A stretch of 64,000 nt of DNA from Escherichia coli (lineage in GTDB: Bacteria > Pseudomonadota > Gammaproteobacteria > Enterobacterales > Enterobacteriaceae), in NCBI RefSeq assembly GCF_003334335.1, contig NZ_QOWQ01000007.1. One strand, given 5' to 3'. The notes below the pieces were generated by a model. That model was not told the origin of the DNA, did not search any database, and worked only from the letters and a program-made list of their open reading frames with translations. Each line of letters opens with the position of its first letter. Positions within the stretch are counted from its first letter, which is position 1. Made by a program: the position numbers and the translations under genes. Of this stretch, positions 3,611-32,720 are shown one piece after another.

Positions 3611-3797
3611 GCCGGATGCGGCGTAAAACGCCTTATCCATCCTACGGTTCCGTGCTCGGGACCTGTAGGCCTGATAAGACGCGTCAGCGTCGCATCAGGC
3701 ACTGAATGCCGGATGCGGCGTGAACGCCTTATCCGGCCTACGGTTCTGTGCTCGGGTCTTGTAGGCCTGATAAGACGCGTCAGCGTCGCATCAGGCA
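3611..3797. repeat. Tandem REP/BIME elements (two ~95 bp units)
   Basis: gccggatgcggcg...cttatcc...gtaggcctgataagacgcgtcagcgtcgcatcaggc occurs twice in tandem, classic REP palindromes; causes an artificial 5' extension of the wcaK ORF in the six-frame track. Confidence 0.85.
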
Positions 3798-5137: not shown

Positions 5138-6354
5138 AGGTCGGTTTCTTCTTATTGAAATTTCCGCTGTCGTCAGAAACCTTCGTTCTTAACCAAATCA
5201 CTGCGTTTATTGATATGGGCTTTGAAGTGGAGATTGTCGCGTTGCAAAAAGGCGATACAGAGAACACCCACGCGGCTTGGACGAAATACAACCTTGCTGC
5301 CAGAACCCGCTGGTTACAGGACGAACCTACGGGCAAAGTGGCGAAACTGCGCCACCGCGCCAGCCAGACCTTACGCGGCATTCATCGTAAAAATACCTGG
5401 CAGGCGCTCAACCTCAAACGCTATGGTGCCGAGTCGCGGAACCTGATTTTGTCTGCTATTTGCGGCCAGGTCGCAACCCCGTTTCATGCCGATGTGTTCA
5501 TCGCTCATTTTGGACCTGCGGGGGTAACCGCAGCAAAACTACGGGAACTGGGTGTCATTCGCGGCAAAATTGCCACCATTTTCCACGGCATTGATATCTC
5601 CAGTCGGGAAGTGCTCAACCGCTACACCCCCGAATATCAACAACTGTTTCGCCGTGGCGACCTGATGCTACCGATAAGCGATCTGTGGGCCGGAAGGCTG
5701 CAAAAAATGGGCTGCCCGAGGGAAAAAATCGCCGTATCGCGTATGGGTGTGGACATGACGCGCTTTAGCCCGCGTCCGGTGAAAGCGCCTGCAACGCCGC
5801 TGGAAATCATTTCCGTCGCACGCTTAACCGAGAAAAAAGGCCTGCATGTGGCGATCGAAGCCTGCCGTCAGTTGAAAGAGCAGGGTGTGGCATTTCGCTA
5901 TCGCATCCTCGGCATTGGCCCGTGGGAACGACGCTTGCGCACGCTCATCGAACAATATCAACTGGAAGATGTGGTGGAGATGCCGGGCTTTAAACCGAGC
6001 CATGAAGTGAAGGCGATGCTCGACGACGCGGATGTCTTCCTCCTGCCATCGGTAACGGGCGCGGACGGTGATATGGAAGGTATTCCGGTGGCGCTGATGG
6101 AAGCGATGGCGGTCGGCATTCCGGTGGTTTCTACTCTGCATAGCGGAATACCAGAGCTGGTCGAGGCCGATAAATCCGGCTGGCTGGTGCCTGAGAACGA
6201 TGCTCGCGCACTGGCGCAACGACTGGCGGCGTTTAGCCAACTGGACACTGACGAACTGGCTCCGGTTATCAAACGTGCTCGCGAAAAAGTCGAACACGAT
6301 TTTAACCAGCAGGTGATCAATCGAGAACTCGCCAGCTTGCTGCAAGCTTTATAG
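5134..6354 (+). CDS. wcaL: Colanic acid glycosyltransferase (GT4 family)
   Basis: 406 aa; ATGA start/stop overlap with wcaK; GT4-type C-terminal motifs ([20 protein letters not shown]). Confidence 0.92.
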
Positions 6355-6364
6355 AGGAGAACGC

Positions 6365-7759
6365 ATGCCATTTAAAACACTCTCCCGACGCACCTTCCTG
6401 ACGGCAAGCTCGGCGCTTGCCTTCCTCCATACCCCTTTCGCTCGCGCACTTCCCGCCCGACAAAGCGTTAACATTAACGACTACAACCCACACGACTGGA
6501 TCGCCTCATTTAAACAAGCCTTCAGCGAAGGGCGAACGGTCGTCGTGCCTGCCGGATTGGTTTGTGACAATATCAACACCGGCATCTTCATTCCTCCCGG
6601 CAAAACGTTACACATCCTTGGAAGCCTGCGCGGCAATGGCAGAGGGCGATTTGTCTTACAGGACGGCAGCCAGGTGACAGGGGAGGAGGGCGGCAGTATG
6701 CATAACATCACCCTGGATGTGCGTGGCTCTGACTGCACCATCAAAGGGCTGACGATGAGCGGCTTTGGTCCGGTAACGCAGATTTATATCGGCGGCAAAA
6801 ACAAACGAGTAATGCGTAACCTCTCCATCGATAACCTGACCGTTAGCCACGCTAATTACGCCATCTTACGCCAGGGATTTCATAACCAGATTATCGGTGC
6901 CAACATCACCAACTGTAAATTTAGTGATTTACAGGGCGACGCCATTGAATGGAACGTGGCGATTAACGACCGTGATATTTTGATATCTGACCATGTCATC
7001 GAGCGCATCAACTGTACCAACGGCAAAATCAACTGGGGTATCGGCATAGGCCTTGCGGGAAGTACCTACGATAATAACTACCCGGAAGACCAGGCAGTGA
7101 AAAACTTTGTCGTGGCGAATATCACGGGATCGGATTGTCGGCAGTTGATCCATGTTGAAAATGGTAAACATTTTGTTATTCGTAATATCAAAGCCCGCAA
7201 TATCACGCCGGATTTCAGTAAGAAAGCGGGCATTGATAACGCCACGGTCGCTATTTACGGTTGTGACAATTTCGTGATTGATAATATTGAAATGATTAAT
7301 AGCGCCGGGATGTTAATCGGGTATGGAGTAATTACAGGCAAATATCTCTCGATACCGCAAAATTTCCGAGTGAATAATATTCAACTGGATAATACCCACC
7401 TTGCTTACAAATTGCGCGGTATCCAAATCTCTGCCGGGAATGCCGTCTCCTTTGTGGCACTGACTAACATTGAGGTGAAGCGTGCGTCGCTGGAGTTACA
7501 CAACAAACCGCAACATCTTTTTATGCGTAATATCAAAGTGATGCAGGAATCCTCTGTTGGACCCGCATTGAGCATGAACTTTGACATGCGCAAAGACGTT
7601 CGCGGCGTCTTTATGGCGAAAAAAGAAACCCTGCTATCTCTTGCAAATGTTCATGCGGTGAATGAGAAAGGACAAAGCTCCGTCGATATCGATAGGGTTA
7701 ATCACCATATTGTTAATGTGGAAAAGATTAACTTTAGATTGCCGGAACGGAGAGAGTAG
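6365..7759 (+). CDS. wcaM: Colanic acid biosynthesis protein WcaM (secreted beta-helix-like protein)
   Basis: 464 aa with an N-terminal signal-like segment ([21 protein letters not shown]); last gene of the wca cluster by synteny. Confidence 0.9.
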
Positions 7760-7933
7760 ATTTGCGACCATTCCTGGAAAAATGGAGCCATACTTAGGAA
7801 CAATGCTACTGCAATCCACAACGAAGCGGCGTAACATCACAAGTAATTCAGTAATCAATTCAGGGTAATTGATGCTGGCGAAAAAAATCGAACAAGCTAT
7901 AATTCAGCAACCATTTTACAGGTGGATGAAATA

Positions 7934-8827
7934 ATGACGAATTTAAAAGCAGTTATTCCTGTAGCGGGTCTTGGGATGCATATGTTGCCTGCCACTAAGG
8001 CGATTCCCAAAGAGATGCTACCGATCGTCGACAAGCCAATGATTCAGTACATTGTTGACGAGATTGTGGCTGCAGGGATCAAAGAAATCCTCCTGGTAAC
8101 TCACGCGTCCAAGAACGCGGTCGAAAACCACTTCGACACCTCTTATGAATTAGAATCTCTTCTTGAACTGCGCGTGAAGCGTCAGCTGCTGGCGGAAGTG
8201 CAGTCCATCTGTCCGCCGGGCGTGACCATTATGAACGTGCGTCAGGGCGAACCTTTAGGTTTAGGTCACTCCATTTTGTGTGCGCGGCCTGCCATTGGTG
8301 ACAATCCATTTGTCGTGGTGCTGCCAGACGTTGTGATCGACGACGCCAGCGCCGACCCGCTGCGCTACAACCTTGCTGCCATGATTGCACGATTCAACGA
8401 AACGGGTCGTAGCCAGGTGCTGGCAAAACGTATGCCGGGTGACCTCTCTGAATACTCGGTCATCCAGACCAAAGAACCACTGGACCGTGAAGGTAAAGTC
8501 AGCCGCATTGTTGAATTTATCGAAAAACCGGATCAGCCGCAGACGTTGGACTCAGACATCATGGCCGTTGGTCGCTATGTGCTTTCTGCCGATATTTGGC
8601 CGGAACTTGAACGCACTCAGCCTGGTGCATGGGGGCGTATTCAGCTGACTGATGCCATCGCTGAACTGGCGAAAAAACAGTCCGTTGATGCCATGCTGAT
8701 GACAGGTGACAGCTACGACTGCGGTAAAAAAATGGGCTATATGCAGGCGTTCGTGAAGTATGGGCTGCGCAACCTCAAAGAAGGGGCGAAGTTCCGTAAA
8801 GGCATTGAGAAGCTGTTAAGCGAATAA
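7934..8827 (+). CDS. galF: UTP-glucose-1-phosphate uridylyltransferase paralogue GalF
   Basis: [39 protein letters not shown]; ATG at 7934 gives 297 aa; classic left flank of O-antigen clusters. Confidence 0.95.
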
Positions 8828-9084
8828 TGAAAATCTGACCGGATGTAACGGTTGATAAGAAAATTATAACGGCGGTGAAGATTCGTGGCGAAAGTAATTT
8901 GTTGCGAATATTCCTGCCGTTGTTTTATATAAATAATCAGAATAACAACGAGTTAGCAATAGGATTTTAGTCAAAGTTTTCCAGGATTTTCCTTGTTTCC
9001 AGAGCGGATTGGTAAGACAATTAGCGTTTGAATTTTTCGGGTTTAGCGCGAGTGGGTAACGCTCGTCACATCGTAGGCATGCAT

Positions 9085-9124
9085 GCAGTGCTCTGGTAGC
9101 TGTAAAGCCAGGGGCGGTAGCGTG
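9085..9124 (+). promoter_or_regulatory. JUMPstart element with ops site (RfaH-dependent antitermination signal) upstream of the O-antigen operon
   Basis: ggcggtagcgtg (ops consensus GGCGGTAGnnTG) at 9113-9124 within the galF-wzx leader. Confidence 0.65.
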
Positions 9125-9346
9125 TCCAGTTTTAATAAAAAACGGCAGATAATTATCGGTTATATAGTCAAAACAATAAAAGATATTTATTAAATATTAA
9201 CGGGGTTGGCTTTAGTGATAAAGTGAGGAAGAACTCAGAAAATGAGAGCATATATTAGAAGTTAGCAGTTTACTCAAATTTTAAACATTTATGTTAACAT
9301 ATGTTTCTGATGAAAATTGTGAGTTTGAATCAATTGCAAAATTATC

Positions 9347-10714
9347 ATGCTATCAAAGGACCATAATTTGTCACATATAAATGACCCTAATAAGTTCTGG
9401 CTTAAGTTAATCCCCCCTCAAATTTTATCAAAAATATCCAATTATAATGGATTATTGGCTGCTATCAATAATAGTGGATGGCTTATCTTTGATAAATTAA
9501 TTCGACTGGCTCTTGGGTTTATTGTTAGTGCATGGATTGCGCGATATCTTGGGCCGAATGATTTTGGTATACTAGCATATGTTCTTGCATATTTGGCCTT
9601 TTTTCAAACTATATCTGTTTTAGGTATGGATGGAATCATTGTTAGGGATATAGCGAGAGATAAAGATAAAGCCGGTGAAGTATTAGGAACTGCATTTATA
9701 TTAAGATTAACAGTTGGTTTTATTTGTTGGATATTTTCAATCATTGGGATGATTATATTTAATGGAATCCATGATGAGGTTGTGTATATTACGGCAATTA
9801 CAGGAGGTCTATTATTATTCCAATCCGTCGATACAGTAGATCTTTGGTTTCAGAGTCAAAGTGAAAGCCGGAGGACTGTTATTGCGAAATTGACAGCTTA
9901 CTTATTATCTAGCAGTGTAAAAATAATATTGATATTAAATGAAGCACCATTAATAGCATTCGCAACAATAATGTTATTTGAAACTGTGGTTTCAGCTGTA
10001 GCATTAGTTATTGCTTATAGAAAATATCCTTGTTATCAATCTTGGGTATTCTTAAAACAACGAGCATATAAAATTATTAATGAGTCCTGGCCCTTTATCT
10101 TAAGTGGCCTTTCAATCTCAATATATATGAGAATAGATCAAATCATGATCAAGGAGTTTATGGGGGATTCTGAACTGGGAATATATGCTGCAGTACTACC
10201 TTTTGCAACACTATGGTCGTTTATTCCAATGACACTATCAATAAGCTTGGCACCTTTTGTTGCAAAAACAAAACAAAAAGGGGAAAGAGAATATTGGACC
10301 TGTTTATATACAATCTTTAGAGTGTTTGCAATTATTGCTTGGTTTGTGGCAATACCTATATCACTAATGTCGAATCATATCGTTTCAATACTTTTAGGTG
10401 CTAAATATGAAGCTGGATCTGTGGTTTTATCTATAATGGCATTTGTAAATATTTTTATAAACATGGGCATAGCACAAAGTTTATGGATATTAAATGAAGG
10501 TAAATCTAAAGTTAGCTTGTATAAAACGATGATAGGTGCAGTTGTATGTGTTGCTGCTAACCTTATTTTGATTCCGAAATATGGGCTTATAGGGGCTTCT
10601 GTAAGCGCGTTATTGGCACAATTTACATCATGCATACTAAGCAATTTTCTCATATGCAAAAAAATATTTTATCTACAAGTTAGAAGTTTGTTTTTTATCA
10701 AGATGAAATTTTGA
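9347..10714 (+). CDS. wzx: O-antigen flippase (Wzx, MOP superfamily)
   Basis: 455 aa multi-pass hydrophobic protein; AT-rich coding sequence; first gene after JUMPstart; exact start not verified. Confidence 0.8.
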   Translation: MLSKDHNLSHINDPNKFWLKLIPPQILSKISNYNGLLAAINNSGWLIFDKLIRLALGFIVSAWIARYLGPNDFGILAYVLAYLAFFQTISVLGMDGIIVRDIARDKDKAGEVLGTAFILRLTVGFICWIFSIIGMIIFNGIHDEVVYITAITGGLLLFQSVDTVDLWFQSQSESRRTVIAKLTAYLLSSSVKIILILNEAPLIAFATIMLFETVVSAVALVIAYRKYPCYQSWVFLKQRAYKIINESWPFILSGLSISIYMRIDQIMIKEFMGDSELGIYAAVLPFATLWSFIPMTLSISLAPFVAKTKQKGEREYWTCLYTIFRVFAIIAWFVAIPISLMSNHIVSILLGAKYEAGSVVLSIMAFVNIFINMGIAQSLWILNEGKSKVSLYKTMIGAVVCVAANLILIPKYGLIGASVSALLAQFTSCILSNFLICKKIFYLQVRSLFFIKMKF

Positions 10715-10802
10715 TTAGTGAATAAGATATAGCGTTGCATATTTGTAATGAAATATAAATTAGATTAATCAGTAATATTGTTTTCAAAATAGGGATAATG
10801 CT

Positions 10803-12023
10803 TTGAATATAGTACTTTCGCTACTACTGCTTCTGATAGGGGGGATATCGATTATATGTGCAATAAATAAAAAGCGACCTATGCTTTTAATTCTTGCAGC
10901 CTTCTTTACAGTATATTTGGCGCTACGCCCCGTATTGCTTTCATTGGGCTTATATAATATTTATGCTTACCTCAACCCATCTGTTATCGATTATGACGAA
11001 AGCGCGCTTACGCATTGTATTATATTCACCCTAATATCATATGTATTGTTATTATTTACTTATCATAAAACAAAAAAAAGAATAAAGATTGATAAATCAA
11101 GCAATAATGACGATCAGAGAGAAAGTAATAGTAATTATAATTTTGTTGCATTTATAATTGCTCTATTACTAATCTTTTCAGTTATATTGATACCAATGTA
11201 TGTTTGTTTTGTTTATTTACTGCTGTTGATCTTGTATTATATTATCAAGTATAAAGGAGATGGGCGTAAGCTTAATGTTGTATTATCGGCTCTTTATTAT
11301 ATCTTATTAATTTTATTGCTTTTTTTTATTTCAGATGATCGTCGTGATTGGTTAGTGGCTATAGGTGTTCCTTTATATATATACATATTTGTATACTTAA
11401 AAAGCCTTATTAAGATTTTAATACCCTCAATAGTTTGCCTGCTACTTCTGGTATATATAAGTGTAGCATTCAGGAGCGGAGGTGATATATTTGATTATGA
11501 TGCTGTTAAAAATAGAGCTGAATCAGTAAGTGCAACTCTTACAGTACTTGAAGTAGAAACTGATTTTAGTATTGTATTTGATGATTATTTACTTTTATTT
11601 GACAAAAGATACTCAAGTATTGATTTTTTATACGGGGTGACAATTTTAAAACCTGTCATCTCGATTATCCCAAGAAGTATATTTCCCGACAAGCCAGAAA
11701 CATCTAGTCGACTTTTCCCAAAATATTTTAATAAACAGTTTTATAATGTTGGTGGTAGTGAACCTGTAACATTATTTGGGGAACTATATTGGAATTTTTC
11801 GTATTTGTCTCTCATTGTTTTTATGTTGTTGGGTAATATTATTGCTCTGATTGATAATACATATTTACATAATAGATCTAATTACTTATTCTCAGCATTG
11901 GTATTATCATTAAGCTTAACTGGTTTCCATCTTCTAAGAGGGCCGATTGATTCTTTTTGTTATCTGTATTTATGGTTGATATTGGCTTATCAATTATTGA
12001 ATGTCGTTAAAAAAATTAAATAG
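10803..12023 (+). CDS. wzy: Putative O-antigen polymerase (Wzy)
   Basis: 406 aa, extremely hydrophobic and AT-rich, many predicted TM segments; apparent TTG start at 10803 with an AGGGA Shine-Dalgarno ~6 nt upstream; position next to wzx. Confidence 0.7.
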   Translation: MNIVLSLLLLLIGGISIICAINKKRPMLLILAAFFTVYLALRPVLLSLGLYNIYAYLNPSVIDYDESALTHCIIFTLISYVLLLFTYHKTKKRIKIDKSSNNDDQRESNSNYNFVAFIIALLLIFSVILIPMYVCFVYLLLLILYYIIKYKGDGRKLNVVLSALYYILLILLLFFISDDRRDWLVAIGVPLYIYIFVYLKSLIKILIPSIVCLLLLVYISVAFRSGGDIFDYDAVKNRAESVSATLTVLEVETDFSIVFDDYLLLFDKRYSSIDFLYGVTILKPVISIIPRSIFPDKPETSSRLFPKYFNKQFYNVGGSEPVTLFGELYWNFSYLSLIVFMLLGNIIALIDNTYLHNRSNYLFSALVLSLSLTGFHLLRGPIDSFCYLYLWLILAYQLLNVVKKIK

Positions 12024-12032
12024 GATATTAAG

Positions 12033-12956
12033 ATGAGTAGCAATCTTGCACCAATATGTTTATTTGTGTATAACAGATATGAGCATACAGTACGAACTGT
12101 TGAGGCTTTGAAAAAAAACACACTTGCATCAAAGTCTGAACTTTATATATTTAGTGATGCGTCCAAAGATTCAAAATCTGTAGTTCAGGTACAAAAAGTT
12201 AGAGAGTATGTTGATACAATAAAAGGTTTTAAGAAAATAACAATAATTAAAGCACCAAAAAACATGGGGTTGGCGGAATCAATTATTAGCGGGGTGTCAT
12301 CTGTTATAAAAAAATATGGGCGTGTAATTGTATTTGAAGATGATCTAGTCTCAAGTCCACTGACTCTAGAATACCTCAATATAATGTTAGATAACTATAA
12401 GAATCAAGAAGACGTTATGTCGGTTACTAGCTACTCGTATCCTGAAAAAACATTAGAAATAGATAAATTTTACAATTTCGATAATTATTTTACGGGGAGA
12501 CCATGTTCATGGGGATGGGCAACATGGCAAGATAGGTGGGAGTCTATTCAATGGGAGGGTGATATATATAGAGATTATTTAAAAAACGAAAGCATGCAGA
12601 AGCAATTCATGAAATATTCAGGTGTCGATATTGACCGAATGCTTAAAAAACAATTGGCAGGGCATATTGATTCGTGGGCAGTAAGATTTGTCTTTAATTG
12701 TTTTTTACAGAAAAAATTAGCTTCATACCCGACTAAATCGTATATTACAAATATCGGTTCTGATGGGACAGGTACGCATCGGGGAGTTAATGAAGAATAT
12801 ATAGTGAATTACTCCTTAAATATTAATCTGCCAACAAATTTGCTAAATGATCTATATGTAGATAAGGATATTTGGAAGCAGTTTAATTTATTTGTTAGGA
12901 AAAAATATTTTTTTCGGAGGGCTTTACTGTTTATAAGAAGGAAATTTTATGCTTAA
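12033..12956 (+). CDS. Putative glycosyltransferase, family not recognised
   Basis: 307 aa ORF in the O-antigen cluster; no GT11 fucosyltransferase motif recognised; function inferred from context only. Confidence 0.6.
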   Translation: MSSNLAPICLFVYNRYEHTVRTVEALKKNTLASKSELYIFSDASKDSKSVVQVQKVREYVDTIKGFKKITIIKAPKNMGLAESIISGVSSVIKKYGRVIVFEDDLVSSPLTLEYLNIMLDNYKNQEDVMSVTSYSYPEKTLEIDKFYNFDNYFTGRPCSWGWATWQDRWESIQWEGDIYRDYLKNESMQKQFMKYSGVDIDRMLKKQLAGHIDSWAVRFVFNCFLQKKLASYPTKSYITNIGSDGTGTHRGVNEEYIVNYSLNINLPTNLLNDLYVDKDIWKQFNLFVRKKYFFRRALLFIRRKFYA

Positions 12957-14061
12957 AAAACTATTAAAGAAGTTTTTCATTCGTTATGCGTATAAATCAT
13001 TTAACAAAAGCGGTTCGAAAAAGGCATTATTATCATTTATCGTCCACCCCTATTTTTTCAAAACATTTAAGCATCCGAATATAATTGAGTTAGAATGTAT
13101 AGTGTCTATTTTAGAAAAGATGGGTTACTGTATTACGGTTGTAGATTATCGAAGAAAAAAAATTCATAAAAAATACGATTTAGTGTTGGGGTTTGGGGAT
13201 TGCTTTGAATATGCTATAAATCATAACTATGGCACTAAGTTTATACTTTATTCAACAGGTTTTCCTGCTTTTATTCAAAACCAGAATGCTATCGAAGCAT
13301 TTTTCCGTTTTAAACAAATGTACACTGAAAAACAGAACATTGTATCTGATAAGTATATACGTTTAACTGAAAATGTTTGGCCCAGACAATTAATAGAAAG
13401 TGATGCTATTATCACTATAGGTAATGATTATGTTAAATCATTATATGAACGATTTCACGATAAGATATATTGTATTCCATCTACAGCTTTTAAAATAATA
13501 ACTCAGCAATCTACAACAATAAATTCTATAAAAAAAAATTCATTTTTGTGGTTTGGAGGGAAAGGGTGTATTCACAAGGGACTGGATTTATGTATAGCAG
13601 CAATAGCTGGCACAGAGTATAAGTTATACATAGCAGGTCCTATAGACGATGAAATTTGTATTTTTAATGACATATTGAGTACTTATCCAGATAATTTTGA
13701 GTATCTTGGTTTTCTTTCTGTTAATACTGAAGAATTTTGCGAGGTAGTTGAGCATATCCCATTTTGTATATTGCCGTCATGTAGTGAAGCAATGGCTACC
13801 TCCATTGTGACGCTGGCTAGTAATTTCGGAACGATTCCGTTAATTACAAAGGAATGTGGTTTTGACTTTGATAATGAAATCATAGAAATAAATTCATTAA
13901 CTATTCAATCTGTTAAACAAGCATTATTTAAAGCGTCATTGTTGACTGAAGATGAAATTTATATTAGAAAATCTTCTATCAAAAGAAAATACAGTTCTTA
14001 TCATAGCAATGAATCGTTTTACAGTAAATTTGAATATTCTCTAAAAGAAATACTTAGATAG
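12949..14061 (+). CDS. Putative glycosyltransferase (GT4-like C-terminal half)
   Basis: 370 aa; C-terminal region carries a GT-B-like ...LPSCSEAMATSIVTLASNFGTIPLI... motif; overlaps the upstream ORF by 8 nt. Confidence 0.6.
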   Translation: MLKKLLKKFFIRYAYKSFNKSGSKKALLSFIVHPYFFKTFKHPNIIELECIVSILEKMGYCITVVDYRRKKIHKKYDLVLGFGDCFEYAINHNYGTKFILYSTGFPAFIQNQNAIEAFFRFKQMYTEKQNIVSDKYIRLTENVWPRQLIESDAIITIGNDYVKSLYERFHDKIYCIPSTAFKIITQQSTTINSIKKNSFLWFGGKGCIHKGLDLCIAAIAGTEYKLYIAGPIDDEICIFNDILSTYPDNFEYLGFLSVNTEEFCEVVEHIPFCILPSCSEAMATSIVTLASNFGTIPLITKECGFDFDNEIIEINSLTIQSVKQALFKASLLTEDEIYIRKSSIKRKYSSYHSNESFYSKFEYSLKEILR

Positions 14062-14071
14062 GTAATTAACA

Positions 14072-15082
14072 GTGATCATCTATGATGGAATTATAGAAAA
14101 ATTGCAGTCTGGCGGTGGTGTTACCGTAGTTTTTAATGAAATTGTCTCGAGGTTAACAGAATATAAATATATTAGCTATGACACTTGTTCTAAAATATCG
14201 ATAGCTAGAAACAATATGATAAAACCATCAAGATTTTTGGAACGATATAGAGATTGTGTTATTCCTGATTACAATCCTCAAGATAAGGCTATATTTCATT
14301 CGACTTATTATAGATTACCTCATCATTTGAACATACCAGTCATAACAACAGTTCATGATTTTACCTATGAAAAGTTCGTTGATGGTCCTGCGAAGAAGAT
14401 TCATTCATGGCAAAAAAATAGAGCAATACGTCGGAGTGATATAATCATCTGTGTATCACAAAATACCGCAAATGACTTGATGAGATATTGTCCGGTAAAT
14501 TCCAGTCGTATTCGTGTAATATATAATGGAGTTTCAGATGAATATTATCCTTTACCCGAAATTAATAATGTTGATTCTCAAAAAGTATTGTTTGTAGGGG
14601 CAAGAGGTGGTTATAAAAACTTTGAATTAGCAATAGATGCAGTTTCCTCTGTAGCCGGATTAGAGTTACATATAGTGGGGGGGGGGGATTTAACAACACA
14701 AGAAAAAATAAAATTAGAAAGTAAATTGTCGGGTAGATATTTTTGGTTGGGTAAGCTTACAAATCAAGAGCTAAATATTGCATATAATAGTAGCTATGCG
14801 TTGCTTTATCCATCAAGTTATGAAGGTTTTGGAATCCCAATTATCGAGGCAATGCGTGCTGGTTGTCCAGTTATTGCTGCGAATTCGTCTTCAATACCTG
14901 AAGTTGCTGGCGATGCGGCAATATTAGTGGATGATTTGAATATATCTACTTTTCGCGAAGCCCTATTAAGCATACCAGCATGTCGCAATGAATTGATCTC
15001 CGCAGGTTTCGCACAGTCTAGAAAATTTTCTTGGGAGCGCTGTTTCCAGGAAACGTTATTAGCTTATAATGAATTGCTTTAA
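14072..15082 (+). CDS. Glycosyltransferase family 4
   Basis: 336 aa; [33 protein letters not shown] is a classic GT4 signature; apparent GTG start; contains a G11 homopolymer at 14677-14687. Confidence 0.8.
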
Positions 15083-15099
15083 TGTATAGTGAGATAAAA

Positions 15100-16224
15100 A
15101 TGAGCAAAAAAATCGCATTCCTCACAGGTGTTACTGGTCAAGATGGCTCTTATCTGGCCGAATTTCTTTTGGCTAAAGGTTATGAAGTTCACGGGATTAA
15201 ACGTCGCGCATCTTCTTTTAATACAGAGCGAGTTGATCATATTTATCAAGCACCTCATCATAAAGACCCTAATTTCTTTCTTCATTATGGTGACTTAACA
15301 GATTCATCAAACCTGATACGTCTAATCAAAGAAATCCAACCAAACGAAGTTTATAACCTTGGCGCTCAATCTCATGTAGCGGTTTCATTCGAATCACCTG
15401 AATATACTGCTGACGTTGATGCGATGGGGACTTTACGTCTGTTGGAGGCGATTCGTATTTGTGGGCTAGAGAAAAAAACACGTTTCTATCAGGCATCTAC
15501 TTCTGAACTCTTCGGCTTAGTTCAGGAAATCCCGCAGCGAGAAACAACACCATTCTACCCTCGTTCGCCTTATGCTGTTGCGAAGATGTATGCATACTGG
15601 ATTACTGTAAACTATCGTGAATCCTATGGAATGTACGCCTGTAACGGTATTCTCTTCAACCATGAATCCCCGCGTCGTGGTGAAACATTCGTAACACGTA
15701 AAATCACTCGTGCTATTGCAAATATTTCGCAGGGAATCGAAAAATGTCTCTATCTTGGCAATATGGACTCACTGCGTGACTGGGGACATGCAAAAGATTA
15801 CGTGCGTATGCAGTGGATGATGTTGCAGCAAGATCACCCAGAAGATTTTGTTATTGCAACAGGCAAACAAATTTCCGTACGTGAATTTGTTCGTATGTCC
15901 GCTAAAGAAGTAGGTCTGGAGTTAGAATTCTCCGGACAAGGTGTTGATGAAATAGCAACTGTTGTCAATAAAACATCTGACTGTGCTATTGGTGTAAGTA
16001 TTGGGGATGTGATCGTTCGTGTTGATCCGCGTTATTTTCGTCCTGCAGAAGTTGAAACTCTTCTTGGTGATCCAGCAAAAGCGAAAAAAGTATTGGGTTG
16101 GGAACCAGAGATTACAGTTGAAGAGATGTGTGCAGAAATGGTTGCCAGTGATCTGGCGAAAGCAAAACAGCATGCACTTCTGAAAAGCCATGGTTACGAT
16201 GTTGCAGTTTCTCTGGAGCGGTAA
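15100..16224 (+). CDS. gmd: GDP-mannose 4,6-dehydratase
   Basis: [36 protein letters not shown]... strongly Gmd-like; ATG at 15100. Confidence 0.93.
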
Positions 16225-16227
16225 GGT

Positions 16228-17193
16228 ATGACAAAAAAACGTATCTACGTTGCTGGTCACCGAGGTATGGTTGGCTCTGCTATTTGCCGTCAATTATCAC
16301 TGCGTGATGATATCGAATTAGTGGTCAAAACACACAAAGAACTCGATCTAACCGTACAGAAGGATGTTGATGCATTTTTTGAGCAAGAGAAAATTGATCA
16401 GGTTTATCTTGCTGCGGCTAAAGTTGGTGGCATTTATGCCAACAATACATTTCCGGCAGAATTCATCTATCAGAATCTCATGATTGAGAGTAATATTATT
16501 CATTCAGCTCACAAGGCCGGAATTCAAAAATTACTTTTTTTAGGCTCAAGCTGTATTTATCCTAAATTCGCAGAGCAGCCGATGAACGAGTCTGCGCTTT
16601 TAACGGGCATACTTGAGCCAACTAATGAGCCATACGCAATTGCTAAAATTGCGGGCATAAAATTATGTGAATCTTATAACCGTCAATATGGCCGTGATTA
16701 TCGCAGTGTAATGCCTACTAATCTTTATGGCATAAATGATAATTTCCACCCTGAAAACTCTCATGTTATTCCGGCACTCATGCGTAGATTCCATGAGGCA
16801 AAAGAGAGTGGAGCACCAGAAGTTATTGTCTGGGGAACCGGAACACCGATGCGTGAGTTTTTATATGTTGATGATATGGCTGCCGCATCTGTTCATGTAA
16901 TGGAACTTGACGAAGCAATTTATCAACAAAATACACAGCCTATGTTATCTCATATTAATGTTGGTACGGGTGTAGATTGTTCTATACGTGAAATGGCTGA
17001 AACAATGGCCTCTGTGGTGGGTTATCAAGGTAAAATTGTTTTTGATGTTACTAAACCTGATGGCACTCCGCGTAAACTTATGGACGTTACCCGGCTCAAA
17101 AACTTGGGCTGGCAATATCGCTATAATTTACATGAAGGCTTATCATTAACATATAAATGGTTTATTGAGAATATTAATTCTTTTCGGGGATAG
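16228..17193 (+). CDS. fcl: GDP-L-fucose synthase (GDP-4-keto-6-deoxymannose 3,5-epimerase/4-reductase)
   Basis: 321 aa; [19 protein letters not shown]... N-terminus typical of Fcl/WcaG; follows gmd. Confidence 0.92.
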
Positions 17194-17195
17194 TT

Positions 17196-17657
17196 ATGAA
17201 CAAGAGATTGGAACGTGAGCTATTTAAAACAATAGTTGAGCATACTCCTCTAATCTCGATTGATCTCATAATTAGAAACGATAAAGGAGAGGCGCTGCTG
17301 GGGCAGCGCCTGAATCGCCCAGCACAAAATTATTGGTTTGTGCCAGGAGGGCGAATTTATAAGGATGAGTCATTCGAGGTTGCATTTAAACGGATAACAT
17401 TTGAAGAGTTGGGCGTTAAAATTAGTCTTAATGACGCCTTATTTCTTGGGGTGTATGAACATTTTTACAATGATAATTTTTCTGAAGCAGAATTTTCTAC
17501 ACACTATGTAGTGCATGGATATGAAATCCAACTTAATCCTCAGCAACTTCACCTACCAACGGTCCAGCATAATTCCTACAAGTGGTTTGATGTAGTAACG
17601 TTGCTTAATAGCACTATAGTTCATCAATATACCAAAAATTATTTTATACCAAGGTAA
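17196..17657 (+). CDS. gmm: GDP-mannose mannosyl hydrolase (Nudix)
   Basis: 153 aa Nudix-like protein between fcl and manC, the canonical gmm position. Confidence 0.85.
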   Translation: MNKRLERELFKTIVEHTPLISIDLIIRNDKGEALLGQRLNRPAQNYWFVPGGRIYKDESFEVAFKRITFEELGVKISLNDALFLGVYEHFYNDNFSEAEFSTHYVVHGYEIQLNPQQLHLPTVQHNSYKWFDVVTLLNSTIVHQYTKNYFIPR

Positions 17658-17662
17658 TACAT

Positions 17663-19069
17663 ATGCTACTTCCCGTTGTCATGGCCGGTGGTTCAGGTAC
17701 CAGATTATGGCCTCTTTCACGTACACTTTATCCGAAACAATTTCTGTCTTTAAATAGTCGTTTAACCATGTTGCAAGAGACATTGCGGCGGCTTGACAAG
17801 ATCGAACATAAACCCGCTTTGGTCATTTGTAACGAATCACATCGCTTTATCGTTGCTGAACAATTGCGTAAAGAGGGTTTAAAGCATAGTGGTATTTTGC
17901 TTGAGCCTGTGGGTCGTAATACTGCGCCTGCTGTAGCACTCGCAGCACTTCAGGCTATGGTAACTGGAGATGATCCTATTCTGTTGGTTCTTGCTGCTGA
18001 TCATGAAATCCAGAATGAGGATAATTTCATTGATGCAGTTCTTGCAGCCAAGAATTTTGCAGAGCAGGGTAAGCTTGTTACGTTTGGTATTGTTCCAACA
18101 TCCCCAGAGACTGGCTATGGTTACATTAAGTTAGGTGAATATCTGGATGGAAAAGGTTACAAAGTTGCGGCTTTTGTTGAAAAACCAGAGCTTCACGTAG
18201 CTCAGCGGTATATATCAGATGGCGGTTATCTTTGGAATAGTGGGATGTTTATGTTCAGAGCATCTGTATTTATCGATGAACTGAAAAAATTCCGACCAGA
18301 TATTTTAGCCAGTTGCCAAAGCTCTCTGTCCTCTTCGACACAAGATTTAGATTTTATCCGTCTGGATAACTCTTCATTTTCTTGCTGTCCTGAAGAGTCG
18401 ATTGATTATGCCGTTATGGAAAAAACAGCCGAAGCTGTCGTCGTTCCATTAAATGCGCAATGGAGTGATGTTGGGTCATGGTCTGCATTGTGGGAAATAA
18501 GTTCAAAAGACCAAAGCGGCAATGCCATTCGTGGTGATGTATTGGTTGAAGATGCTACAGATAGTTATCTTTATTCGCAGCATAGACTTATTGGTGCCGT
18601 GGGCGTAAAGGATTTGGTTGTTGTTGAAACGAAAGATGCCGTATTAGTTGCTCATAAAGACAAAGTTCAGCAAGTTAAAAATATTGTCGCTCAACTTAAA
18701 AAAAATAATCGAACAGAATATTTACAGCATCGGGAAATTTTTCGGCCTTGGGGCAGTCATGATACTATAGCTGAAGGGCCGCGCTTTCAAGTGAAACATG
18801 TGATTGTATTACCTGGTCACATTACCGCTAAGCAGATTCATTACCATCGTACTGAGCATTGGATTGTTGTCTCGGGGACAGCTAAAGTTCATCTTGAAGA
18901 TAAGACTTATCTTGTTTCTGAAAATGAATCAACATACATACCTGTTGGTGTTCCACATGCCATTGAAAATCCTGGCAAGATCCCACTCGAAATAATTGAG
19001 GTTAGATCAGGAGTCTACCTTGAAGAGGATGATGTTATAAGAGTTCCTTCTTCTGGAGTAGGATACTAA
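17663..19069 (+). CDS. manC: Mannose-1-phosphate guanylyltransferase
   Basis: 468 aa; N-terminal nucleotidyltransferase motif (VVMAGGSGTRLWPLSR) and C-terminal cupin region. Confidence 0.93.
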   Translation: MLLPVVMAGGSGTRLWPLSRTLYPKQFLSLNSRLTMLQETLRRLDKIEHKPALVICNESHRFIVAEQLRKEGLKHSGILLEPVGRNTAPAVALAALQAMVTGDDPILLVLAADHEIQNEDNFIDAVLAAKNFAEQGKLVTFGIVPTSPETGYGYIKLGEYLDGKGYKVAAFVEKPELHVAQRYISDGGYLWNSGMFMFRASVFIDELKKFRPDILASCQSSLSSSTQDLDFIRLDNSSFSCCPEESIDYAVMEKTAEAVVVPLNAQWSDVGSWSALWEISSKDQSGNAIRGDVLVEDATDSYLYSQHRLIGAVGVKDLVVVETKDAVLVAHKDKVQQVKNIVAQLKKNNRTEYLQHREIFRPWGSHDTIAEGPRFQVKHVIVLPGHITAKQIHYHRTEHWIVVSGTAKVHLEDKTYLVSENESTYIPVGVPHAIENPGKIPLEIIEVRSGVYLEEDDVIRVPSSGVGY

Positions 19070-19815
19070 TGCGAATTTCTATTATCACAGCTACTTATAA
19101 TAGTGAAAAAACTCTCCTTGATACATTACTTTCTCTAGAAAAGCAAACGCATCCAGATATTGAATATATAGTTGTAGATGGAGCATCGAAAGATAATACA
19201 ATTAAGCTGATTAAGAGTAATTGTACAAAAGTTTCAAAAATCATTTGCGAACCCGATAAGGGCATTTATGATGCTCTGAATAAAGGTATTCAAGCAGCTT
19301 CGGGTGATGTTATTGGTTTTTTACATTCTGATGACTTATTTGCTTATGATGATGCTATTGCAGATATAGCAAAAACATTTGAAAGTACAGGATGTGATGC
19401 TATTTATGGCGATTTGGAGTACGTTGCCCAAAATGATACGACTAAACGTATTAGATTATGGAAAAGTGGTTCATTTAGTCGTTTCAAGATGAAAGTGGGT
19501 TGGATGCCGCCACACCCATCATTTTATATGAAACGCGAATGTTATAGTCAGTTTGGTAGTTTTTCTTTAGATTATCGAATATCTGCTGATTATGACTCAT
19601 TATTACGATATATTTTAAAACAACGTATTTCGATAGCATATTTACCAAAAGTCTTAGTGAAGATGCGTGTTGGTGGAATTAGCAATCGTTCAGTATCTTC
19701 AATGGCCAAGAAGTCAATGGAAGACATTCGTATTATGAAACAGAATGGTATTATCTGGCCACTTGCTTTAGCGTATAAAAATATATCCAAACTTCCTCAA
19801 TTTATTAAAAAGTAA
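19069..19815 (+). CDS. Glycosyltransferase family 2
   Basis: 248 aa; MRISIITATYNSEKTLLDTLLSLEKQTHPDIEYIVVDGASKDNT is a typical GT2 N-terminus with DxD-type region. Confidence 0.8.
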   Translation: MRISIITATYNSEKTLLDTLLSLEKQTHPDIEYIVVDGASKDNTIKLIKSNCTKVSKIICEPDKGIYDALNKGIQAASGDVIGFLHSDDLFAYDDAIADIAKTFESTGCDAIYGDLEYVAQNDTTKRIRLWKSGSFSRFKMKVGWMPPHPSFYMKRECYSQFGSFSLDYRISADYDSLLRYILKQRISIAYLPKVLVKMRVGGISNRSVSSMAKKSMEDIRIMKQNGIIWPLALAYKNISKLPQFIKK

Positions 19816-19820
19816 TCATC

Positions 19821-21245
19821 ATGTTAAATGTTAAAAAAATCATTAACGATAGTAATATTGCGTTCGGTACTAGTGGTGCTCGCGGTTTAGTGATCGATTT
19901 TTCCCATGATGTTTGTGCTGCGTTCACTCATGCGTTTCTTTCTGTTATTGATGACAAATACAATTTTAGTAAAGTTGCCTTAGCCATTGATAACCGCCCA
20001 AGTAGTTACGAAATTGCTCAGGCATGCGCGTATGCTATAAAACAACATGGATTCGAGGTTGAATATCATGGTGTAATTCCGACTCCTGCATTAGCTCATT
20101 ATTCGATGCAGAAAAACATTCCCTGCATAATGGTCACAGGGAGTCATATCCCTTTTGATCGTAATGGCTTAAAATTCTACAGACCTGATGGTGAAATCAC
20201 TAAAGAGGATGAGCTCGCAATTATAAATAGTGAGTATACATTTTCGCCTGTAGGTGAATTACCTCATCTTGAAACAAGCACTCAAGGTGCAGACTACTAC
20301 CTCGAACGTTATGTTTCTCTTTTTAATCCCGAGATTTTAAAGGGGAAAAGAATAGGGGTATATGAACATTCTAGTGCGGGACGCGATTTATATGCTCCTC
20401 TTTTTAATCAAATGGGTGCAGAGGTCATTTCCCTCGGTAGGAGTGATGAGTTCGTTCCGATTGATACGGAAGCAGTAAGCGATGAAGATCGTATACTTGC
20501 AAGAGAGTGGTCTAAAAAATATAATCTTGATGCTATTTTCTCAACAGATGGCGATGGTGATCGTCCTTTAGTTGCCGATGAAAATGGTGAATGGTTAAGA
20601 GGCGATATTCTGGGACTACTTACTGCTATTGAACTTAATATCAAGGCGTTGGCTATTCCAGTGAGTTGTAATACAGCAATTGAAGAGTCTAATAAATTTG
20701 CAAGTATACAACGAACGAAAATAGGTTCTCCTTATGTAATTGCAGCATTTGCAGATCTTGCTAAGCAATTTGATTCAGTCGCTGGTTTTGAAGCTAATGG
20801 TGGTTTTCTCCTTGCCTCCGATTTACAAATTAATGGCAAGGAATTAAAATCGTTACCTACACGAGATGCTGTGTTACCAGCATTAATGCTCTTAATAGCT
20901 TCTCGCAATAGTACTATTTCTCAACTGATTAATAATCTTCCTCAGCGATTCACTTGGTCAGATAGAGTTAAAAACCTCCCTTCAGATTCAAGTCAACAAA
21001 TTATAAAAAATGCCATATCGTCACCCAATAATTTCTTTAATAGTTTAGGTTATGAATCATTATCCTGTTCCGCTATTGATGAAACGGATGGTGCAAGATT
21101 TACTTTAAATAATGGTGATATTATACATCTCCGTCCTTCCGGTAATGCTCCAGAACTCCGTTGTTATGCTGAGGCCAGTGATGAAAATCAGGCTAAGCAA
21201 TATGTTACGAATGTGCTGGGAAATATTACCTCTTTGATTTCTTGA
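19821..21245 (+). CDS. manB: Phosphomannomutase / alpha-D-phosphohexomutase of the O-antigen cluster
   Basis: 474 aa; phosphohexomutase active-site-like TGSHIP motif; sequence clearly differs from the cpsG paralogue at the window start. Confidence 0.75.
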   Translation: MLNVKKIINDSNIAFGTSGARGLVIDFSHDVCAAFTHAFLSVIDDKYNFSKVALAIDNRPSSYEIAQACAYAIKQHGFEVEYHGVIPTPALAHYSMQKNIPCIMVTGSHIPFDRNGLKFYRPDGEITKEDELAIINSEYTFSPVGELPHLETSTQGADYYLERYVSLFNPEILKGKRIGVYEHSSAGRDLYAPLFNQMGAEVISLGRSDEFVPIDTEAVSDEDRILAREWSKKYNLDAIFSTDGDGDRPLVADENGEWLRGDILGLLTAIELNIKALAIPVSCNTAIEESNKFASIQRTKIGSPYVIAAFADLAKQFDSVAGFEANGGFLLASDLQINGKELKSLPTRDAVLPALMLLIASRNSTISQLINNLPQRFTWSDRVKNLPSDSSQQIIKNAISSPNNFFNSLGYESLSCSAIDETDGARFTLNNGDIIHLRPSGNAPELRCYAEASDENQAKQYVTNVLGNITSLIS

Positions 21246-21441
21246 TGTTATAGGTTTATCTACGCTTATATGTGTGCGTAGGTTTGATTACACGTAGATG
21301 CCGGTATACAGAATTGAAGAACGGTATTTGTTGCATTAATGAAATTCAGCACTACACACATTCGTGCAACTTGAGATAACATCTCAATCATATTCAAGTC
21401 GCGCATACATCGCGGTGACCACCCCCTGACAGGAGTAAACA

Positions 21442-22848
21442 ATGTCAAAGCAACAGATCGGCGTCGTCGGTATGGCAGTGATGGGGCGCAACCTTGCGCT
21501 CAACATCGAAAGCCGTGGTTATACCGTCTCTATTTTCAACCGTTCCCGTGAAAAGACGGAAGAAGTGATTGCCGAAAATCCAGGCAAGAAACTGGTTCCT
21601 TACTATACGGTGAAAGAGTTTGTTGAATCTCTGGAAACGCCTCGTCGCATCCTGTTAATGGTGAAAGCAGGTGCAGGCACGGATGCTGCTATTGATTCCC
21701 TCAAACCATATCTCGATAAAGGCGACATCATCATTGATGGTGGTAACACCTTCTTCCAGGACACCATCCGTCGTAATCGTGAGCTTTCTGCAGAAGGCTT
21801 TAACTTCATCGGTACCGGTGTCTCCGGCGGTGAAGAAGGTGCGCTGAAAGGTCCTTCCATTATGCCTGGTGGGCAGAAAGAAGCCTATGAGCTGGTTGCT
21901 CCGATCCTGACCAAAATCGCCGCAGTGGCTGAAGACGGTGAGCCATGCGTTACCTATATTGGTGCTGATGGTGCAGGTCACTATGTGAAGATGGTTCACA
22001 ACGGTATTGAATACGGTGATATGCAGCTGATTGCTGAAGCCTATTCTCTGCTTAAAGGTGGCCTGAACCTCACCAACGAAGAACTGGCGCAGACGTTTAC
22101 CGAGTGGAATAACGGTGAACTAAGCAGCTACCTGATCGACATCACCAAAGATATCTTCACCAAAAAAGATGAAGACGGTAACTACCTGGTTGATGTGATT
22201 CTGGATGAAGCAGCAAACAAAGGTACTGGCAAATGGACCAGCCAGAGTGCGCTGGATCTCGGTGAACCGCTGTCGCTTATTACCGAGTCTGTGTTTGCAC
22301 GTTATATCTCTTCTCTGAAAGAGCAGCGTGTTGCCGCATCTAAAGTTCTCTCTGGCCCGCAAGCACAGCCAGCAGGCGACAAGGCTGAGTTCATCGAAAA
22401 AGTTCGCCGTGCGCTGTATCTGGGCAAAATCGTTTCTTACGCTCAGGGCTTCTCTCAGCTACGCGCCGCGTCTGAAGAGTACAACTGGGATCTGAACTAC
22501 GGTGAAATCGCGAAGATTTTCCGTGCTGGCTGCATCATCCGTGCACAGTTCCTGCAGAAAATCACCGATGCATATGCCGAAAATCCGCAGATCGCTAACC
22601 TGCTGCTGGCTCCGTACTTCAAGGAAATTGCCGATGACTACCAGCAGGCGCTGCGCGATGTCGTCGCTTATGCAGTACAGAACGGTATCCCGGTTCCGAC
22701 CTTCGCCGCTGCGGTTGCCTATTACGATAGCTACCGTGCCGCTGTTCTGCCTGCGAACCTGATCCAGGCACAGCGTGACTATTTCGGTGCGCATACTTAT
22801 AAGCGCATTGATAAAGAAGGTGTGTTCCATACTGAATGGCTGGATTAA
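21442..22848 (+). CDS. gnd: 6-phosphogluconate dehydrogenase, decarboxylating
   Basis: 468 aa; [27 protein letters not shown]...; canonical right flank of the O-antigen cluster. Confidence 0.97.
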
Positions 22849-22877
22849 TCTGATTTAAATCAATTAATCAATGCAAG

Positions 22878-22906
22878 GCCCGGAGAAACCCTCCGGGCTT
22901 TTTTAT
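22878..22906 (+). terminator. Rho-independent terminator after gnd
   Basis: gcccggag-aaac-ctccgggc hairpin followed by a T8 run. Confidence 0.75.
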
Positions 22907-23104
22907 TATACAAAGCGGCAGGTTATGGCCTTTTTTTATAATTTATGGTTAAAAAAGCGATATAATACAGAGCCGCACAGCAGGATCGCTGTCTTGACAG
23001 TTCAACCGCATCAGCGTTAAAAATCCCGCAGTACGCAGTAGATGAAGTTGTGGTGGTGGACTAATGACCACTCTAAATGTTTTAACCGGAAGAAGTCAGA
23101 GCTA

Positions 23105-24271
23105 ATGAAAATAACAATTTCAGGAACAGGTTATGTTGGTCTTTCAAATGGTATTCTGATTGCGCAAAACCACGAAGTGGTTGCACTGGATATCGTTCAG
23201 GCCAAAGTTGACATGCTTAACAAGAAGCAGTCACCGATTGTTGATAAGGAGATTGAAGAGTATCTGGCGACTAAAGATCTCAATTTCCGCGCTACGACAG
23301 ATAAGTATGACGCGTATAAAAATGCCGATTACGTTATTATTGCCACACCTACCGATTATGATCCGAAAACAAATTATTTTAATACCTCAAGCGTGGAAGC
23401 GGTCATTCGCGATGTGACAGAAATTAATCCCAACGCGGTAATGGTGATTAAATCTACAATTCCGGTAGGTTTCACCAAATCAATTAAAGAACGTCTGGGT
23501 ATCGATAACCTTATTTTCTCTCCGGAATTTCTCCGTGAAGGTAAAGCCCTTTACGATAATCTCCATCCTTCACGTATTGTCATTGGTGAGCGTTCAGAAC
23601 GCGCAGAACGTTTCGCTGCGTTATTACAGGAAGGAGCGATTAAGCAAAATATCCCGACCCTGTTTACCGACTCCACTGAAGCAGAAGCGATTAAACTTTT
23701 TGCAAACACCTACCTGGCGATGCGCGTGGCGTACTTTAACGAACTGGATAGCTACGCAGAAAGTTTAGGTCTGAATTCCCGTCAAATAATCGAAGGCGTT
23801 TGTCTCGACCCACGAATTGGCAACCATTACAACAATCCGTCGTTTGGTTATGGTGGTTATTGTCTGCCGAAAGATACCAAGCAGTTACTGGCGAACTACC
23901 AGTCTGTGCCGAATAACCTGATTTCGGCAATTGTCGATGCTAACCGCACACGTAAAGACTTTATTGCCGATGCCATTTTGTCACGCAAACCGCAAGTGGT
24001 GGGTATTTATCGTCTGATTATGAAGAGCGGGTCAGATAACTTCCGTGCGTCTTCCATTCAGGGGATTATGAAACGTATCAAGGCGAAAGGCGTTGAAGTG
24101 ATCATCTACGAACCGGTGATGAAAGAAGATTCATTCTTCAACTCTCGCCTGGAACGTGATCTCGCCACCTTCAAACAACAAGCCGACGTCATTATCTCCA
24201 ACCGTATGGCAGAAGAGCTTAGGGATGTGGCAGATAAGGTATACACCCGCGATCTTTTTGGCAGCGACTAA
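23105..24271 (+). CDS. ugd: UDP-glucose 6-dehydrogenase
   Basis: [29 protein letters not shown]...; ATG at 23105 gives 388 aa. Confidence 0.95.
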
Positions 24272-32524: not shown

Positions 32525-32571
32525 TTTGTTATTCCTCTTTAAACCTGTCTGAACCGTTATCAACCGCGCAA

Positions 32572-32610
32572 TAAAAAAGCCCCCGGAAGGTGATCTTCCG
32601 GGGGCTTTCT
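32572..32610 (-). terminator. his attenuator (leader terminator hairpin)
   Basis: On the minus strand gcccccggaag...cttccgggggc hairpin followed by a U-run, between hisL and hisG. Confidence 0.85.
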
Positions 32611-32669
32611 CATGCGTTCATGCACCACTGGAAGATCTGAATGTCTTCCAGCACACATCGCCTGAAAGA

Positions 32670-32720
32670 CTAGTCAGGATGATGGTGATGATGGTGGTGT
32701 TTAAATTGAACGCGTGTCAT
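32670..32720 (-). CDS. hisL: his operon leader peptide (MTRVQFKHHHHHHHPD)
   Basis: Reverse complement of 32670-32720 reads ATG ACA CGC GTT CAA TTT AAA CAC CAC CAT CAT CAC CAT CAT CCT GAC TAG; seven consecutive His codons. Confidence 0.95.
   Translation of the reverse strand: MTRVQFKHHHHHHHPD

Follow-up and report, generated by a model that had tools for sequence, protein, structure and literature searches.

Which O-antigen is encoded by the genes between galF and gnd in the 64,000-nucleotide stretch of Escherichia coli DNA analyzed here (assembly GCF_003334335.1, contig NZ_QOWQ01000007.1; the whole stretch is called the window), and does it belong to a known serogroup? A sequence-only reading of the window had described a Wzx/Wzy-type cluster with four glycosyltransferases (GTs) and a private GDP-L-fucose pathway. 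Based on the follow-up analysis, we consider it likely that the locus is an intact Wzx/Wzy-dependent O-antigen operon, read through from a JUMPstart element. This grading covers the explanation as a whole, that is, the operon type, the fucose route, the assembly of the O-unit, a mosaic origin of the cluster and a probably undescribed O-genotype.

Gene content and boundaries of the locus

The program-made list of open reading frames (ORFs) displays 11 co-directional ORFs on the plus strand at positions 9347–21245, close-packed or overlapping and all intact in the window. The cluster is flanked upstream by galF (7922 or 7934 to 8827; curated model TIGR01105 passed with 685 bits) and downstream by gnd (21442–22848; curated model passed with 770–774 bits). 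The gene order is wzx, wzy, three GT genes here called gtA, gtB and gtC, gmd, fcl, gmm, manC, a GT2-family gene (gtD) and manB. Analysis of the ORF list with NCBIfam and Pfam confirmed the gene content previously listed for a Wzx/Wzy-type cluster at these positions. Neither ABC-transporter domains nor Bac_transf or other initiating-transferase domains were found by these two collections in the 11 products. The lack of an initiating transferase inside the cluster supports the earlier proposal that synthesis starts with WecA, the gene of which lies outside the window. PADLOC defense-system models gave zero matches for six cluster proteins (the four GTs, ManB and Wzy), and there is thus no ground to read the cluster genes as other than polysaccharide genes.

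A JUMPstart/ops element was identified on the plus strand at 9086–9124, between galF and the first ORF and 5' of the operon (Rfam RF01707, 60 bits as compared to a gathering score of 35). The canonical element with its ops sequence is legible at this position (cagtgctctggtagctgtaaagccaggggcggtagcgtg), and it is a predicted RfaH-dependent antitermination site. Inside the cluster, promoter-like sites (53 versus 56.9 expected) and terminator-like sites (11 versus 7.6 expected) are at chance level, which is compatible with a single operon. The per-gene GC content is approximately 0.29–0.35 in the first five genes (wzx to gtC) and 0.33–0.42 in the last six genes (gmd to manB), as compared to 0.52 in galF, 0.505 in gnd and approximately 0.54–0.55 in the colanic-acid genes. 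The stretch between JUMPstart and gnd is thus AT-rich, as had been noticed.

Synthesis of GDP-L-fucose

The genes for a complete GDP-L-fucose route are present in the cluster. ManC (17663–19069; TIGR01479, 738 bits versus a cutoff of 373), Gmd (15100–16224; TIGR01472, 587 bits versus 415) and the GDP-L-fucose synthase Fcl (16228–17193; NF047922, 548.5 bits versus 500) are identified by their sequences as orthologues of the enzymes that turn mannose-1-phosphate into GDP-L-fucose. The gene gmm (17196–17657) encodes a GDP-mannose mannosyl hydrolase of the Nudix type (NF011963, 205 bits versus 146). Functional replacement of Fcl by a different reductase, giving another 6-deoxyhexose, had been named beforehand as a finding that would refute a fucose unit. 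The data speak against this: Fcl passes the equivalog model and, when aligned to its colanic-acid paralogue from the near-identical strain LR-29-1 (73% identity), keeps S107, C109, Y136, K140 and H179, the catalytic residues of the E. coli GDP-fucose synthase.

The product of manB (19821–21245) belongs to the phosphohexomutase superfamily, with Pfam domains PGM_PMM_I to IV, and is annotated as a phosphomannomutase. Its best NCBIfam match is of the archaeal GlmM type (172 bits versus a cutoff of 439), and no equivalog model was passed. We infer the predicted phosphomannomutase role from the genomic context and the published annotation.

The claim that the strain carries a second set of these genes for colanic acid was borne out in LR-29-1, where gmd, fcl, gmm, cpsB and cpsG are located approximately 15–20 kb upstream of the O-antigen cluster; the window itself starts within cpsG. 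The pathway chemistry of the two sets is identical, whereas the proteins differ: Gmd is 80%, Fcl 73%, Gmm 50%, ManC 59% and ManB only 20.5% identical to the colanic-acid counterpart, and the GC content of the colanic-acid set is approximately 0.55 as compared to 0.33–0.42 in the O-antigen set. The comparison identifies the two sets as diverged paralogues and not as recent duplicates. A manB gene is thus part of the O-antigen set, as had been stated, although it is not a copy of cpsG.

Glycosyltransferases and the predicted first linkage

The GT2 gene located between manC and manB (gtD, 19069–19815, 248 residues) is, as judged from sequence and position, an orthologue of wfeY. Its product is 91.9% identical to the manC–manB GT of the O41 reference NCTC9041, which also has 248 residues and lies in the equivalent position, and 98.8–99.6% identical to the copies at two further loci, L002 (strain Ecol_517) and L003. 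A comparison with solved GT2 structures gave a match at 8e-22. The earlier call of a GT2 enzyme is thereby retained and refined to a known type.

A wfeY gene between manC and manB is common to E. coli O36, O41, O156, O159, O168 and the novel-serogroup strain SD2019180, and the wfeY-bearing groups share the disaccharide alpha-L-fucose-(1->3)-D-N-acetylglucosamine (Fuc and GlcNAc, respectively), a linkage that has been ascribed to wfeY (PMC10606467). The gene has also been named in O156 (PMC5359238). We found no enzyme assay for WfeY, and the assignment in PMC10606467 is based on the co-occurrence of gene and linkage. Given the orthology of gtD to wfeY and the published linkage, the reducing end of the O-unit can be predicted to be alpha-L-Fuc-(1->3)-GlcNAc, with the gtD product as the putative alpha-1,3-L-fucosyltransferase acting on GlcNAc-PP-undecaprenol. 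GT2 enzymes are inverting, and an alpha-fucoside is therefore expected from GDP-beta-L-Fuc, which agrees with the linkage assigned to WfeY.

The other three transferases are encoded by consecutive genes in the 5' part of the cluster. The gtA gene (12033–12956, 307 residues) encodes a GT of the GT-A fold (GT2/GNT-I-like) with an EDD motif in the context ...VIVFEDDL... and a significant, modest match to Pfam Glycos_transf_2 (4.9e-7). A large-database search yielded at least 6,971 relatives of equal length, most of them with PF00535 and/or PF03071; the nearest named relatives include proteins of Citrobacter amalonaticus and Aeromonas veronii. The gtC gene (14072–15082, 336 residues, GTG start) encodes a GT4-family enzyme with 22 NCBIfam matches of the GT4 type and the Pfam domains Glyco_transf_4 and Glycos_transf_1.

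The product of gtB (12949–14061, 370 residues) is a diverged GT of the GT-B fold. Taken alone, it has no significant match in Pfam, and a direct comparison of gtA and gtB with the sequences of the Protein Data Bank gave nothing significant. The family of gtB, however, comprises 1,471 representative sequences, and Glycos_transf_1 was matched in 52 of 68 sampled members. A profile of the family matched the C-terminal domain of the glycogen synthase GlgA at 2e-6. The AlphaFold model is of high confidence (predicted local distance difference test 95.3, predicted template modeling score 0.92), and the top Foldseek matches are the GT-B sugar transferases SenB, TarM, BshA, PimA and HepE (best E = 3e-11; 213 matches at E ≤ 0.001). 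The idea that gtB is a non-transferase, which the blank Pfam result had prompted, was ruled out by this family, profile and fold evidence. Thus, the proposed number of four transferases was upheld when each was checked singly, and all four are real transferases, including the two that were initially weakly supported.

Flippase and candidate polymerase

The first gene, wzx (9347–10714), encodes an O-unit flippase with approximately 12 hydrophobic segments and matches to NCBIfam MOP-flippase models and to Pfam Polysacc_synt and Polysacc_synt_3. It can start at ATG 9347, giving 455 residues, or at TTG 9368, giving 448 residues; the annotation pipeline PGAP picks either start, depending on the genome. 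The identity of Wzx is 49% to the O41 Wzx and 65% to an orthologue in Citrobacter.

The second gene, wzy (10803–12023, 406 residues, TTG start), encodes a polytopic membrane protein with several hydrophobic segments and is the sole polymerase candidate in the cluster. The protein matches the repeat-unit polymerase model TIGR04370 weakly (E = 1.3e-5; 24.4 bits versus a cutoff of 40) and in a collinear manner over positions 198–392 of 396; the precomputed record contains no Pfam match. Its relatives include an "oligosaccharide repeat unit polymerase" of Citrobacter (61% identity) and an "O-antigen polymerase" of Pseudoalteromonas (34%). Based on these sequence features, we accept the assignment as a polymerase, yet it is the weakest of the gene identities in the cluster.

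The 3' end of wzy is polymorphic at a homopolymer at 12009–12015 on the plus strand. Seven adenines, as in the window and in the Korean and Canadian genomes described below, give a protein of 406 residues ending in ...VVKKIK, whereas six adenines, as in LR-29-1, give 410 residues ending in ...VVKKLNRILR and reading into the start of gtA. Both forms are widespread on public contigs (406 residues on 21, 47 and further contigs, 410 residues on 18). Since a three-residue change at the end of Wzy goes with an altered polymerization linkage in O127 as compared to O90 (PMC7685785), the variation may not be neutral.

Predicted structure of the O-unit

In the assembly that we propose, WecA would put GlcNAc-1-P on undecaprenyl phosphate, and the WfeY-type enzyme would add alpha-L-Fuc at O-3 of GlcNAc. 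The gtA, gtB and gtC products would each add one further sugar from the housekeeping donors UDP-Glc (glucose), UDP-Gal (galactose), UDP-GlcNAc, UDP-GlcA (glucuronic acid), GDP-Man (mannose) or GDP-Fuc. Wzx would flip the pentasaccharide and Wzy polymerize it, and WzzB and WaaL would complete the process. Neither gne nor any sugar pathway besides that for GDP-fucose is found among the 11 cluster genes, which leads us to expect GlcNAc, added via WecA, as the first sugar and housekeeping pools as the source of the other three. The predicted unit contains no N-acetylgalactosamine, as gne is missing, and no cluster-encoded O-acetyl groups. In most Wzx/Wzy clusters, the O-unit has one sugar more than there are GTs (PMC10606467). 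With four verified transferases and a complete GDP-L-fucose route, the cluster very probably builds a five-sugar, L-fucose-containing repeat, which supports the composition of about five sugars proposed earlier.

Several points weigh against this structure and the gene assignments behind it. The one-transferase-one-sugar rule has exceptions. The linkage ascribed to WfeY is a correlation across serogroups from one paper, and the identification of Wzy rests on the below-cutoff model match together with topology and position. Moreover, gtB is split in some isolates into fragments of 171 and 215 residues (P0025 and P0026, on four contigs each). These are natural frameshift variants, from which a shortened or altered O-unit is to be expected, and not every carrier thus makes the full unit.

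The O-unit could also be something other than a simple pentasaccharide with a single fucose, for example if one of the transferases uses GDP-Man, adds a second Fuc or adds two residues, or if there is a non-stoichiometric side branch. Such a structure is conceivable because manB and manC feed GDP-Man as well as GDP-Fuc; as to the specificity of gtA, gtB and gtC, the best characterized relatives are at most 38% identical. In addition, the size and branching of E. coli O-units vary widely (PMC7685785). However, all four transferases are single-domain proteins of ordinary size, and the published rule on transferase numbers for most clusters of this type (PMC10606467) speaks for the simple structure. 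We regard the more complex structure as doubtful, although a serious contender, and retain the pentasaccharide with one fucose.

Mosaic structure of the cluster

Comparison with L002 and L003 located a recombination breakpoint at 15327–15343, approximately 230–245 bp inside gmd, where the 5' serotype-specific block meets a shared 3' cassette. There is no homology between the window and these two loci before position 15095 or so, an identity of approximately 80% across 15125–15327 and an identity of 96–100% from 15343 onwards. Over the whole of 15343–21245, the identity is 99.20% to L002 and 99.63% to L003, as compared to 99.71% to the Canadian carrier and 97.65% to the Korean one, both with this cluster type, 94.88% to O41 and 73.1% to the Citrobacter locus. 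The near-identity of the 3' cassettes in unrelated clusters indicates that the cassette has been exchanged among E. coli O-antigen clusters. As judged from these alignments, the cluster has a mosaic structure, in which a serotype-specific 5' block, itself rare, is joined to an exchanged fucose/WfeY cassette. Contrary to the earlier description, the GDP-L-fucose pathway is hence not private, since the segment from the middle of gmd to manB is common to unrelated O-antigen clusters.

In Ecol_517, an IS1 insertion sequence (IS) is located between manB and gnd (positions 15235–15932 of L002), and IS903B, IS3 or IS5 breaks the gmd–manB match in three further genomes; IS elements seem to target the fucose cassette often. 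An assignment of Ecol_517 to O102 was considered and dropped because O102 is not among the published wfeY-bearing groups.

Whole clusters have also moved. In an alignment of the Canadian carrier (strain 38M23CPO015, L005) with positions 6347–24253 of the window, the segment 8847–21347 is 99.4–100% identical, whereas the identity is 93–97.6% in wcaM and galF and approximately 96% in gnd. The sharp steps at approximately 8847 and 21350–21850 mark the edges of the transferred O-antigen segment. High identity inside and lower identity outside these edges shows that the whole cluster was moved between chromosomal backgrounds.

Relation to known clusters

The galF–gnd locus and the 3' cassette gmd-fcl-gmm-manC-wfeY-manB are shared with O41 (NCTC9041, L011; cassette 94.9% identical at the nucleotide level). 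The closest relatives of Wzx and gtA within E. coli are also encoded there, gtA being 38% identical to the O41 GT that adjoins wzx. However, the 5' gene order in O41 is wzx-GT-GT-wzy-GT-hypothetical, as compared to wzx-wzy-GT-GT-GT in the window. There is no detectable O41 counterpart of Wzy or gtB, and that of gtC is weak (29% over 126 residues). The differing 5' block, together with a wzx match that reaches only about 65% nucleotide identity and covers 21% of the query, indicates that O41 is a different O type.

The serogroups O36, O156, O159 and O168 and strain SD2019180 have the manC–manB wfeY and the GDP-fucose genes in common with the window (PMC10606467), whereas their wzx, wzy and remaining GT genes are unrelated to those of the window. 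O-acetyltransferase genes are carried by both L002 (two acetyltransferases) and L003, the latter also with rmlBDAC; none of these are present in the window.

All 11 genes were found in identical order, and likewise at galF–gnd, in Citrobacter GCA_950098555.1 (L006). The amino-acid identities are 65% for Wzx, 61% for Wzy, 64% for gtA, 63% for gtB, 67% for gtC, 92% for Gmd, 81% for Fcl, 70% for Gmm, 86% for ManC, 83% for WfeY and 73% for ManB. At the nucleotide level, the identity is only 68–81%, which points to a common origin or a transfer long ago and not to recent exchange. E. coli is well known to share O-antigens with related genera (PMC7685785), and based on these gene-by-gene identities the O-unit of the Citrobacter strain is very likely identical, or almost so, to that of the window. 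A paper on Citrobacter serotyping contains no mention of fcl or gmd.

A cluster may be present and still not be expressed as O-antigen. O34, O89 and O144 are rough in spite of full gene sets (PMC7685785), and both the variable homopolymer in the last codons of wzy and the gtB frameshift variants in some isolates would fit a rough phenotype. Against this stand the intact JUMPstart element and ORFs (11 of 11), a conservation of 98–100% among carriers isolated on three continents, and the maintenance of the reading frames in Citrobacter at 61–92% identity. Conservation across continents and preserved frames point to purifying selection, and we consider a rough phenotype of this strain very improbable and an expressed O-antigen operon the better explanation.

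Distribution and serogroup

A search of 5,426 complete E. coli genomes identified the whole cluster in 3 of them, each from a human isolate. The carriers are the Ecuadorian strain LR-29-1 (100% identity), the Canadian strain 38M23CPO015 (99.8%) and the Korean strain Z1323HEC0462 (L004; 98.0%). For the half from wzx to gtC, megablast gave no other match in this genome set, and by sensitive blastn the nearest further match was the distant wzx of O41. Nor did the set, which includes NCTC reference strains, yield any wzx or wzy near-identical to a named O1–O188 reference. In a collection of 5.8 billion proteins, Wzy forms one cluster of 50 sequences at 90% identity, and its next relative is the Citrobacter protein. 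Approximately 100–200 public contigs carry the cluster.

The names attached to these proteins were examined for the 15 members listed out of 36–50 in each of the Wzx, Wzy and gtB protein clusters. No curated names were present among the listed members, which have UniParc identifiers only and pipeline names such as "flippase" and "hypothetical protein". As a control, the O41 Wzy is named "O41 family O-antigen polymerase" in the same collection and has a UniProtKB entry, "O-antigen polymerase". The strain names and accessions LR-29-1, AP027515, Z1323HEC0462 and 38M23CPO015 are absent from the searchable literature. The serogroup, which the sequence-only reading could not assign, thus remains without a match among the complete genomes or a curated name among the listed members, and the cluster is probably an undescribed O-genotype, not one of the classical O-groups with sequenced references.

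Still, the cluster could belong to an already named O-group or to a provisional OgN or OX genotype that is missing from the collections searched. With names read from 15 of the 36–50 members in each protein cluster, a label of the OgN or OX type may exist. PGAP leaves some known types unnamed, as seen in L002, where Wzy is called "O-antigen ligase family protein", and with some 100–200 contigs carrying the cluster, large surveys could have catalogued it. However, wzx and wzy were matched only in the three carriers, even by blastn, with O41 wzx as the next match. The exclusively pipeline-given names among the listed members, as compared to the curated O41 control, and the absence of the strain names from the literature also argue for novelty. 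We therefore judge a previous naming to be unlikely. A paper on OgN genotypes in enterotoxigenic E. coli contains no mention of gmd, fcl or manC.

Taken together, we lean slightly towards a not-yet-described serogroup whose gene architecture is shared with Citrobacter. Its repeat would begin with Fuc-alpha-1,3-GlcNAc, which is the fucosylated core of Lewis-type host glycans, and it would circulate as a rare type among human gut isolates from three continents.

Other features of the window

The window differs from LR-29-1 by about a dozen single-nucleotide polymorphisms (SNPs), one homopolymer and a small difference near 61.8 kb. The latter is a cluster of differences at 61799–61807, probably a short indel, just 3' of the third of three tRNA-Asn genes (57412–57484, 59820–59892 and 61641–61713). 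The other differences, about 11 across the 64 kb, are isolated SNPs.

In the colanic-acid cluster, the gap between wzxC and wcaK contains a match to naRNA4, a nucleoid-associated RNA derived from repetitive extragenic palindromes, on the minus strand at 3668–3738 (Rfam, 79.7 bits). A truncated remnant of a microcompartment protein of the EutP/PduV family lies on the minus strand at approximately 43786–44082, between tmaR and cobU, and is annotated as a pseudogene in LR-29-1. The backbone further contains the his leader (32571–32694), the yefM-yoeB toxin-antitoxin pair (33003–33505) and the small RNA STnc240 (35433–35507).

Implications

Sequence-based serotyping will leave carriers of this cluster O-untypeable or will mis-type them, and its wzx and wzy would serve as specific markers. 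The results do not challenge the current understanding; this kind of locus is well understood, and the value of the cluster lies mainly in serotyping. New here are the WfeY identity with the predicted reducing-end disaccharide, the settling of two doubtful GTs, the breakpoint in gmd, the orthologous cluster in Citrobacter and the rarity of a cluster without a name. For the biology of E. coli and its relatives, the locus provides a clean example of O-antigen diversification, in which one crossover in gmd joins a conserved cassette of pathway and first-transferase genes to varying serotype-specific blocks, after which entire clusters travel between chromosomal backgrounds and genera.

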